Assembly (NCBI RefSeq): GCF_017348835.2
Contig: NZ_CP071375.1
Source: Escherichia coli
GTDB taxonomy: Bacteria; Pseudomonadota; Gammaproteobacteria; Enterobacterales; Enterobacteriaceae
Strand: one strand, 5' to 3'
DNA length: 64,000 nt
The position numbers are program-made. This document shows positions 37,501 to 40,500 of this stretch, piece by piece. How positions within the stretch are numbered: position 1 is the stretch's first letter; every line of letters begins with the position of its first letter.

Positions 37501-40500
37501 GCTGCTGCGCAGGGCTGGAGCATTAAGGATGGCGGAATTCAGTTGTCAGATGGTGTATTTAAGATCACCAAGCAGAGCAATAAAACCTGGTCCCTGACGC
37601 ATCCGGTGGATGACGCAATTACCCTGCTGACACAGGGCGGCAGACTGACCTGTAAGTTCCGCCTGTCAGGCGCACTGACCAACAATCAGTTCGGGCTGGG
37701 GATTTATCTGTATACGGATGCTCCCGTTCCTGATGGTGTGGCGATGACGGGTACCGGTAATCCGTTCCTGATGTCGTACTTCACTCAGACCACTGACGGC
37801 AGAGTGAATCTGATGCATCACAGGAAAGCCGGAAACACGAAGCTGGGGGAGTTCGGCGATTACGGTAACGACTGGCAGACGCTGGAGCTGGTGTTCACCG
37901 CCGGCAGTGCCACGGTTACTCCGAAACTGAATGGAGTGGCTGGCCCGGCATTCCAGGTTATAAAAGACAGTCTGACACTGGGACTGAATGCGCTGACGCT
38001 GACGGATGTTACAAAAAATGCAGCGTATGGCGTTGAGATAGAAAGTCTGGTGCTGGAGATAAATGCACCGGCAGCATAATAAAAAAAGAGCCAGCGACTG
38101 ACCTGAAAGAAGACGCTGGCTAAAAGGCCTTATATGTTTGTAGAGACTTATTTTTCACAGACAGCAATGATGCCTGTCAATATATTATCAATATGCGGAT
38201 TGTTTCAGTTACAGATGCTTTATTAAGGAAAAAAACAGCCAGCACTGACTTTCGGTGGAGAGGTGCTGGCTCAGAAGGATAGTTGGATTTCACATGATAC
38301 TTATGCCTGGCGGTATATTTTCTGACAGACAGTGACGGGTGTTGTCAAGATATTGTGTCATTTATAACCTGAATCAGGGGGTGGCCGGAATGTTATCTGG
38401 CATTTTTAGCAGAGCCTGAATGCCATAATCACGGCTCCCGGAGTTGGCCGTCAGTGGGTGACACTGGCGGCTTTTTTGTTTTTCTTTACTTTCATTTTCT
38501 GTCGGCGGTGACGGAGACATACATCAGATGGAAAAAATCACAACAGGTGTGTCATACACCACGTCAGCGGTGGGGACGGGATACTGGTTACTGCAGCTGC
38601 TGGACAAAGTCTCTCCGTCCCAGTGGGTGGCAATAGGTGTGCTGGGAAGTCTGCTGTTTGGCCTGCTGACGTATCTGACTAACCTGTATTTCAAAATCAG
38701 AGAGGACCGTCGTAAGGTGGCGCGGGGAGAGTAGTCGATGAATAAACAATACGAACTGGTTGTAAAATGAATATTTCTAACTGAAAAAACGTTCCATGAG
38801 GTAAGAAAAGGTCACAGGCAATCAATAACAGGACGTGATGAAAGACCCTTGCATTTGTGCGCTTTCTCTTTAGATAGCAGCAGATACTGAAAATCTGAGT
38901 TGTCGGGGAGTCAGGGATACAGCTGTGCAAGAGTTGGTCATTGTGATTCCATTGAAATCCTGTATGCCATGAAGGGCAGGATTTTATGGCTACCTGAGCT
39001 TTGGTGATAGTAAGTTGAAAATTCGCATTTTTTGCTGACATGCGTAACGAGAATCCCATAAGCAGGGAGGACTTAATTCTTCATTAACCCATGCGTTGAT
39101 ATTATGTTTCAGCCGTTGAAGCATCAGCGGTGTTAATGTTGTGGTAATAATATCCAGCGTTTTATGTGAGATCTTACCGTAAGGGTCTGCAAGAATGCTG
39201 CTTGTTGCTTCGTTATTATCTGCCATCAGAAGAAGTAACTCTGATTTAACGTTTTCTGTCATTAGTTGTAAAAATCTTCTGCGCAAACTTTCTTTACTGT
39301 TCATTTATATGGCTTCATTTGTTGTAATCTGCTGCGTCTCAAGGGATATGTTTATGAGAGCGACCATGAGTGTTGGATTATATACCTAACATATCAAGGG
39401 ATTAGAAATCGATAAATCCCCATGAACGAAAAAATAAAATACGGCCTGTCGGCTGCCGTTCTGGCGCTGATTGGTGCAGGTGCTTCTGCGCCTGAAATCC
39501 TCGACCAGTTTCTGGATGAAAAGGAAGGTAACCACACCACGGCATACCGTGATGGTGCGGGGATCTGGACCATCTGCCGTGGTGCCATTCTGGTGGATGG
39601 TAAGCCTGTTATTCCTGGCATGAAGCTGTCAAAGGAAAAATGCGACCGGGTTAATGCCATCGAACGTGACAAGGCGCTGGCATGGGTGGAGAAAAACATC
39701 CGGGTGCCGCTGACCGAACCCCAGAAAGCGGGGATCGCGTCATTCTGTCCGTACAACATTGGCCCCGGTAAGTGCTTCCCGTCGACGTTTTATAAACGAA
39801 TTAATGCAGGCGATCGAAAAGGTGCCTGTGAGGCGATTCGCTGGTGGATTAAGGACGGTGGCAGAGACTGCCGTATCCGTTCAAATAATTGCTACGGTCA
39901 GGTCTCACGGCGTGACCAGGAGAGCGCGCTGGCGTGCTGGGACATCGACAGATAGCAGAATATTTTCCTGAAAAATGACGTTGGCCAACGCGGGTGGATA
40001 ACACGAAATCCTGAAAACTGGTAAAACCTAAGTGAATAAAAGTAAAAACCCCGTTTGTTGGCAGCAAGCGGGGTTTTGTGTTTTCTGACCTTGAGTAAGG
40101 CAAGGGAGAAATTATGGGTAGGGAGGTACTTTCCCTGTGAGGAAGTATAAAAGATTCTTTCTGAGGTTGTCCATTATGAAAGGCATTGAAGTGGAGACGC
40201 CAGCCAGTCTGGATTTAACAAGAGCGGCAGCTTTTGCCATTCGTATTGTGGCCATTGCTGTTCTGGTCTGGGCAATCCGTTGGTGGTGATATGAACCGTG
40301 TTCTGTGCGTGGTTATCATTGTCCTGCTGGTGGCCTGTGGTGCGCTTAGTCTGGGGCTGAATCATTACCGTGATCACGCCATCATCTACAAAGAGCAGCG
40401 CGATAAAAAAGCCAGTGAGCTGGAGCTGGCGAACGCGACAATTACTGATATGCAGGTACGCCAGCGTGATGTCGCTGCACTTGATGCCAGATACTCGAGG

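Follow-up and report, generated by a model that had tools for sequence, protein, structure and literature searches.

Lambdoid morons are a well-known class of phage genes, represented by bor and lom of lambda and by gene 15 of HK97. They are independently transcribed accessory genes, expected to be expressed from the repressed prophage, and are marked by insertion between genes that are adjacent in relatives and by a distinct base composition, and the classical definition also expects each to have its own terminator; the concept is said to go back to Juhala and Hendrix in 2000. Here we describe an open reading frame (ORF) of 104 codons that lies on the opposite strand between the holin and endolysin genes of an Escherichia coli prophage, within a 64,000-nucleotide stretch of contig NZ_CP071375.1 (assembly GCF_017348835.2) referred to below as the window. 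The ORF is a genuine gene whose protein sequence is kept by purifying selection. We consider it fairly probable that it is a moron with transcription of its own, made from a separate promoter during the silence of the late operon, and that it works through its protein product. It is already catalogued as a hypothetical protein, and by kind it is an uncharacterised addition to the lambdoid morons. Only its conserved tail-to-tail pairing with a late gene of the YdfR family, together with the finding that a single O157 genome contains an ORF-only cassette and its partner-only complement, goes beyond the ordinary.

The ORF resembles the lambdoid morons in being inserted between genes that stand close together in related phages, in deviating in composition from its neighbours, in carrying a promoter-like element and in persisting as prophages decay. 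It shares with bor (borD in DLP12) a place in the lysis region, antisense to the late operon. It differs from morons in having no recognisable terminator and in often standing tail to tail with one particular late gene, and its expression in lysogens is presumed. Unlike bor and lom, which encode envelope proteins, it specifies a soluble product with no signal peptide, lipobox, hydrophobic segment or membrane segment (maximum 19-residue Kyte-Doolittle mean 0.66). The described gene that compares most directly is orf6 of the Shiga toxin 2 (Stx2) phage 86 (BAF34038), which belongs to the same family with 49–53% identity and holds the same position, antisense and divergent from the endolysin gene R; records of the ECs_1097 type are identical to the ORF. 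Phage 86 also has an intact orf5 (DUF1327 plus a C-terminal domain, 268 amino acids), whereas its counterpart in the window is reduced to 10 codons and debris. The prototype of this neighbour, YdfR of Qin (DUF1327), is co-directional with the holin gene S and with R, belongs to the late transcript and has no sequence relationship to the antisense ORF; the 10 initial codons of such a gene survive in the window, precisely at the place of ydfR. The antiholins S107 and S21-71, P1 LydB and T4 RI and RIII resemble the ORF in being small proteins encoded in or beside lysis cassettes. They are made from the lysis transcript, however, and are membrane or holin-binding proteins, whereas the ORF shows no similarity to them. 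An antiholin or lysis-timing protein was rejected as an identity for the ORF, which is encoded on the opposite strand in 100 of 100 loci and lacks the expected hydrophobic segment or signal peptide.

The preliminary description placed the holin and endolysin genes about 690 bp apart, with a 104-residue ORF on the opposite strand of the gap; the measured distance is 687 bp, and the ORF was located within it (Table 1). Length alone is weak evidence for a gene. A frame of at least 104 codons in the gap has a probability of about 0.04 in 5000 first-order Markov simulations of 687 bp, and a spurious 120-residue ORF overlaps the antisense ORF in another frame. The case for the ORF instead comes from comparative evidence. 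A search of 5.8 billion proteins recovered full-length homologues with 64–79% identity, and an exhaustive hidden Markov model (HMM) search of 1.84 billion cluster representatives extended the family to distant branches at 21–50% identity. The family is tiny, comprising 20 clusters in the HMM search, and two scans of 100,044 GTDB species-representative genomes found no relatives. Residues E17, K20, P41, G43, W72, E76, Q91 and K92 are invariant in all branches. The pairwise ratio of nonsynonymous to synonymous substitution rates (dN/dS) is 0.15–0.3 in unsaturated pairs, and substitutions are enriched at third codon positions. Within the lineage of the window allele (hereafter window-type), DNA identity is 96.5–97.8% in the ORF, 92–94% in the adjoining spacer, 89–92% in the upstream region and 83–86% in the lysozyme gene, the spacer diverging two to three times faster than the ORF. 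An AlphaFold2 model, built on an alignment of only 8 sequences, is a five-helix bundle with pLDDT 88.7 and pTM 0.78.

The ORF had been described as without recognisable motif, and this is borne out by Pfam, NCBIfam and PADLOC, none of which gave a match. The protein also has no relative in the PDB and no fold relative of known function. Its sole match is PHROG 1853, annotated as of unknown function (E 3.5e-47, ORF residues 1–102 on profile positions 57–158 of 159), to which phage 86 orf6 belongs as well (E 8.4e-50). Database names throughout the family (ECs_1097, WP_000138558.1, phage 86 orf6, PHROG 1853) are limited to "hypothetical protein" or unknown function. The isoelectric point ranges between 5.0 and 9.3 among family members, a spread that speaks against a conserved surface for binding nucleic acids. 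In the PGAP annotation the protein has 90 amino acids and starts at M15. This start is probably 14 codons too short; the 104-residue form is preferred because residues 1–14 are conserved, a Shine-Dalgarno-like GAGG or GAGGA precedes the longer start in relatives, and the modelled helix begins at residue 3.

The distribution of the ORF was followed in a comparison set of 100 loci carrying the family (individual loci are cited by L number). Wherever a holin, lysozyme or YdfR-family gene could be detected in these loci, it stood on the strand opposite to the ORF, with no exception. Window positions 38500–39960 find a 100% match in prophage DNA on the chromosomes of E. coli O157:H7 and further Shiga toxin producers; the equivalent cassette in strain Sakai is that of prophage Sp4, in which the antisense gene is ECs_1097. 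The ORF occurs in 673 of 5426 complete E. coli genomes (about 12%), with at least 99% identity in 621, and the C-terminal domain of its convergent partner, the YdfR-family gene, occurs in 787 of the 5426. Holin and endolysin genes had been taken to be normally adjacent. This is the case in DLP12, where essD and rrrD (holin and lysozyme) abut with no insert, but not in Qin, where ydfR stands between them and all three genes are co-directional, nor in many E. coli prophages that carry a YdfR-family gene of 185–333 amino acids at this point. Where that gene is extended and the ORF is lacking (L020–L024, L110), it ends only 36–42 bp before the lysozyme gene. The ORF splits this junction, with the partner intact, in phage 86 (orf5/orf6), Stx2a phage 12E129, L003, L007, L009, L012 and L079–L109. 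In 54 loci, the window and 53 others, the partner is decayed or absent and the ORF stays intact. The slot between holin and endolysin is thus a recurrent site for YdfR-family genes with or without the antisense ORF. The insert seen in the window, for which related prophages had been proposed as a check, is conserved in the related cassettes.

The ORF region is also foreign in composition, with a GC content of 36–40% against 52–55% in the holin, lysozyme and Rz genes, and it is found outside the holin-endolysin junction in L017/L018, L028 and L088. In L017/L018, a copy with 72% identity stands between Q and a lysis cassette of another kind (holin_8, holin_3_7, GH108), immediately 5′ of and co-directional with an lc/nmpC-like porin gene, both genes being antisense to the late genes. 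L018 retains a decayed copy of the 25 bp that precede the lysozyme start, ATG included, and the ORF block was therefore transferred from a holin-endolysin slot. K-12 prophages DLP12 and Qin contain no homologue of the ORF, not even 5′ of nmpC, despite the equivalent nmpC arrangement in DLP12. The ORF remains intact in the decayed prophages L005 and L015/L016, in which the lysis genes are truncated or were not detected.

Besides the ORF, the gap holds the remnant of a YdfR-family gene that was absent from the preliminary description. Its first ten codons, MNKQYELVVK, match the start of phage 86 orf5 (DUF1327, E 3.7e-45) at 8 of 10 positions and the start of a 385-residue gene in L083 at 10 of 10. 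The holin gene and the first 36 nt of the remnant are 90% identical to L083; homology then ends and resumes at the stop codon of the ORF. With only 10 codons before its stop, the remnant does not qualify as a member of PF07041, a domain of about 90 residues. The 214-bp spacer that follows has no DNA similarity to intact partner genes and occurs only with the window-type allele. It is probably the leftover body of the YdfR-family gene, judging by a weak, stop-interrupted match to the C-terminal domain of that family at 38811–38942 (tblastn, 36% over 44 amino acids; E 7e-5 in a 1.1-kb database and E 0.005 for the whole window). In relatives the intact gene is convergent on the antisense ORF; in the window the co-directional gene has been destroyed and the antisense gene retained.

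Upstream of the ORF, the perfect −10 hexamer TATAAT is identical in 7 of 8 aligned window-type sequences, L017/L018 included, and reads TACAAT in L012. About 100 nt 5′ of the ORF are conserved throughout the window-type branch, even in L017/L018 with their different, unrelated neighbour gene. This region includes a five-codon upstream frame that alignment shows to be kept as M-[KR]-x-[YQ]-[KE]-stop in the same branch and that is fused in frame to the ORF in L015/P0005 (MKFYKMNSEE). The inverted repeat TCTCA-N13-TGAGA, which in L017/L018 forms an 8-bp stem, could be an operator or an RNA hairpin.

On the reading that we favour, an autonomous accessory gene was inserted with its 5′ end facing that of the endolysin gene, on the strand opposite to the Q-dependent late operon. 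That operon is silent in the lysogen, and the antisense gene could therefore be transcribed from its own sigma-70-type promoter, with the −10 element given in Table 1; it is probably expressed from the prophage and would function through its protein. Once the prophage is induced, strong late transcription running head-on against the antisense gene would be expected to switch it off, and the gene would not be the one to delay lysis. Purifying selection, a fixed antisense orientation, mobility together with the upstream region, foreign composition and a decayed neighbour gene are all directly supported, while promoter activity, expression in the lysogen and action as a protein are what we infer. 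The independent-insert reading is preferred because the AT-rich ORF, its co-travelling upstream block and the origin of the L018 block are classic marks of a moron. Genes that abut in DLP12 (essD/rrrD), or that are 36–42 bp apart as partner and lysozyme in L020–L024 and L110, are separated by it, the latter pair in phage 86, L003, L007 and L012. The possibility that the ORF is cargo, raised in the preliminary description, agrees with the selection, the AT-richness, the promoter-like block that moves with the ORF and the antisense orientation in every locus examined.

Several observations weigh against a fully autonomous moron. The −35 element is weak, and a generic promoter scan did not call the TATAAT site. 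The phage 86-type (phi86-type), L088 and L028 branches are without TATAAT and have a different, hairpin-containing leader instead. No terminator of its own was found: the stretch from the ORF stop to the holin gave no call of a minus-strand intrinsic terminator and contains no canonical one, and in relatives the 3′ end of the ORF abuts or overlaps the convergent gene. RNA folding 3′ of the ORF is no better than that of shuffled sequences (z = 0.54). The recurrent convergent pairing with a gene for the YdfR-family C-terminal domain suggests that the ORF may fall short of complete independence. A literature search for ECs1097, its neighbours and WP_000138558 yielded no paper and no transcription or translation data; a preprint on the small RNA HnrS concerns prophages Sp9, Sp10 and Sp12 and not this locus.

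The leaders of the other branches have features of their own. Those of L006 (3385–3470), L007, L088 and L028 share a hairpin rich in GC, CGYCAGTG-loop-CACTGGCG, with a T-rich run after it, within TCAGCC...GGCTGA, and continue with a mini upstream ORF that reads MAEIYLTISVED-stop, MADYFWLRK-stop or MADC-stop. This hairpin looks like a terminator or attenuator. The leaders have no Rfam match, and no compensatory changes were seen in 5 sequences; Rfam likewise gave no match in the gap of the window or in the leaders of relatives.

A functionless frame, arising by chance in non-coding spacer or left as pseudogene debris, is very improbable. It would account for a length that is only marginally unusual, for the longer spurious ORF that overlaps, for the lack of domain matches and for the very small size of the family, but not for purifying selection, a confident structure prediction, full-length conservation down to 21% identity with invariant residues, divergence slower than that of the adjoining spacer, or a frame that is intact in essentially all of about 100 loci. 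The comparative data, as we read them, effectively refute it. A role in which transcription itself matters and the protein is secondary is improbable as well. Convergent transcription from the ORF promoter could tune lysis, either by interference with the late transcript from S to R or through antisense RNA reaching the holin message. The promoter-like −10 is separated from the endolysin start by only about 40 bp and points head-on into the late transcript, and with no terminator detected between the ORF stop and the holin gene a transcript could run antisense into the latter. Selection acts on the amino-acid sequence, however, and the conserved entity is a confidently folded protein and not merely the act of transcription. 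The ORF moreover stays intact in L005 and L015/L016, whose lysis genes are truncated or escaped detection, and occurs outside the holin-endolysin junction (L017/L018, L028, L088). The extra 687 bp would take only seconds to transcribe, and late transcription modified by Q should, from established lambda biology, prevail over a weak promoter that faces it. The idea in the preliminary description that convergent transcription could modulate lysis timing finds no support in these data. A cis-antisense regulatory RNA of the lambda OOP or P22 sar type was also considered and rejected, as the region encodes a selected protein, the ORF overlaps neither the S nor the R coding sequence, and the gap has no Rfam match.

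Unlikely, but less so than these, is the possibility that the ORF and the convergent YdfR-family late gene together make up a two-gene module, in which the ORF protein or an antisense transcript neutralises or regulates the partner protein; the window copy would then be orphaned and might act in trans on the partner of other prophages or incoming phages. The most distant homologues of the ORF (P0143 in L028–L030, P0153 in L027 and the ORF of L088) come from enterobacterial lambdoid cassettes of other types, with a Gifsy-like holin in L028–L030, an HP1-type holin in L027 and a Citrobacter phiNP-like endolysin in L088. These ORFs too are tail to tail with a homologue of the YdfR-family C-terminal domain, the 3′ ends overlapping in L027–L030, and in L028 and L088 the pair stands 5′ of the holin. 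The convergent pair, its 3′ ends abutting or overlapping, therefore recurs over deep divergence and in several types of lysis cassette, including the S21-type E. coli cassettes L003, L006, L007, L009, L012 and L079–L109. At that distance the partner C-terminal domains are 36–41% identical (E about 1e-20) and share the motifs RIGRCMxxLQxAAEIE, DNPPFK and PGxxYLKG, and the ORFs retain 21–50% identity to that of the window. The association of ORF and partner is old and suggests a functional link. YdfR, the DUF1327 prototype, has been reported to bind RNase E's catalytic domain and to co-purify RNA (PMC13232886); the report concerns the partner family and not the ORF, and because of it the partner could plausibly be a host-directed late protein worth controlling. 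Strain 493/89, a 100% match to the window, carries in another prophage the cassette L110 (NZ_CP038412.1 3312813–3313370), which consists of a holin gene, an intact 185-residue partner (WP_001015164.1) and a lysozyme gene. With no antisense ORF, it is the complement of the ORF-only cassette of the window. Against a module, each gene is common without the other, as in the partner-only cassettes with gaps of 36–42 bp, the 54 ORF-only loci and the ORF beside a porin gene. A weak test, in which AlphaFold2 was applied to an ORF-partner fusion (30-residue linker, paired 13-row alignment), predicted no confident complex (pTM 0.35), with pLDDT 25–65 in the partner part and about 92 in the ORF part. There are no matches to PADLOC or toxin-antitoxin families, and a convergent layout is atypical of protein toxin-antitoxin pairs. 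More doubtful still is a specific form of this idea, an old two-gene switch of enterobacterial lysis cassettes in which a prophage-made five-helix protein or a read-through antisense RNA would disarm the late host-directed protein, the orphan copy in O157 acting in trans on the partner of co-resident or incoming phages. A toxin-antitoxin system or known anti-phage defence was rejected for the pair, since neither ORF nor partner has a PADLOC or Pfam match of that kind and the genes are convergent and not operonic.

Lambdoid prophages are numerous in E. coli O157 and other Shiga-toxin-producing strains, and their accessory genes influence virulence, competition between phages and the release of toxin. 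The ORF, uncharacterised to date, is found in about 12% of complete E. coli genomes, almost always as a single near-invariant allele. If its pairing with the partner reflects antagonism, this would point to a regulatory or exclusion mechanism attached to lysis cassettes, and a two-gene switch, if real, would add a novel form of interference or immunity between phages, with the lysis region at its centre. If not, the ORF is one more moron. For annotators and phage biologists the practical yield is a genuine selected gene, a likely longer start and a recurrent cassette slot.

Table 1. Features of the lysis region and elsewhere in the prophage, in window coordinates.
Feature	Position	Strand	Remarks
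DicF small RNA	18058–18109	−	Rfam
ALIL frameshift pseudoknot	20160–20276	−	Rfam; IS3-family insertion sequence
ALIL frameshift pseudoknot	28368–28484	+	Rfam; IS3-family insertion sequence
sok antitoxin RNA	29489–29655	+	Rfam; hok/sok-type locus
Q antiterminator gene		+	First in local order, before the tRNA genes
Three tRNA genes	35490–35736	+	Between Q and the STnc100-type RNA
STnc100 short RNA	35816–36006	+	Rfam, 138 bits; between the tRNA genes and the NanS-p gene
NanS-p-type SASA esterase gene	36229–38079	+	
Intrinsic terminator	38446–38482	+	Canonical (11-bp stem, T-run); about 45 bp 5′ of the holin start
Class II (phage 21 S-type) holin gene	38528–38734	+	68 amino acids; PF04971 Phage_holin_2_1, E 1.3e-32; PGAP "class II holin family protein" in identical E. 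coli records
Holin-lysozyme gap	38735–39421		687 bp
YdfR/DUF1327-family gene remnant	38738–38770	+	ATG 4 nt after the holin stop; MNKQYELVVK, then TGA (GGA, Gly, in relatives)
Spacer	38774–38987		214 bp; dissimilar in DNA to intact partner genes
Hairpin AAAATCCTG...CAGGATTT	38955–38985	−	Just 3′ of the ORF stop; no T-run, not a canonical terminator
Antisense gene	38990–39304	−	104 amino acids, soluble, five helices; ECs_1097 / WP_000138558.1 / PHROG 1853
Upstream mini-ORF	39301–39318	−	Five codons (MKPYK-stop); TGA overlaps the ORF start (ATGA)
Inverted repeat TCTCA-N13-TGAGA	39337–39359	−	Presumed 5′ leader; repeat kept by most window-type relatives
−10 hexamer TATAAT	39377–39382	−	Perfect; 72 nt 5′ of the ORF start
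−35 element TTCTAA	39402–39407	−	Weak; 19-nt spacer to TATAAT
Lysozyme gene	39422–39955	+	177 amino acids; right border of the gap; PF00959, E 7.6e-24; PGAP "lysozyme"
Terminator-like hairpin	40045–40077	+	Strong, 15-bp stem, then GTGTTTTCTG; between endolysin and spanin genes
Rz/Rz1 genes	40234–40758	+	
PerC-family regulator gene (PchA/B/C-like)	41224–41538	+	104 amino acids, same length as Sakai pchA; just 3′ of the lysis cassette

The surrounding plus-strand genes are given in their order in Table 1. A canonical intrinsic terminator stands ahead of the holin gene, and holin expression therefore needs read-through, presumably by Q-modified polymerase. The STnc100 element may be a short terminated transcript of the late promoter; it likewise precedes the late genes in L006 and L088. 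The lysozyme is predicted to be of the signal-arrest-release type from its hydrophobic N-terminus rich in glycine and alanine, KIKYGLSAAVLALIGAGASAP, and its gene is divergent from (head to head with) the antisense gene.

The junction between the lysozyme and Rz genes (39955 to 40234, 278 bp) includes a 37-residue ORF called by PGAP. In phage 86 and L009 this slot is occupied by an Ant/Roi-type antirepressor gene, making it another variable junction of the cassette. A PerC gene, which in the window follows the lysis cassette, again adjoins an ORF-family member in the prophage remnant L015/L016. In Sakai Sp4 (L025/L026, NC_002695.2 1182130–1190000), the segment from the holin gene to pchA is inverted relative to the window and is bordered by IS629 and an IS66-family element. 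IS629 inverted this lysis segment; in Sp4 the late promoter is consequently no longer connected to the lysis genes, and yet ECs_1097 remains intact.

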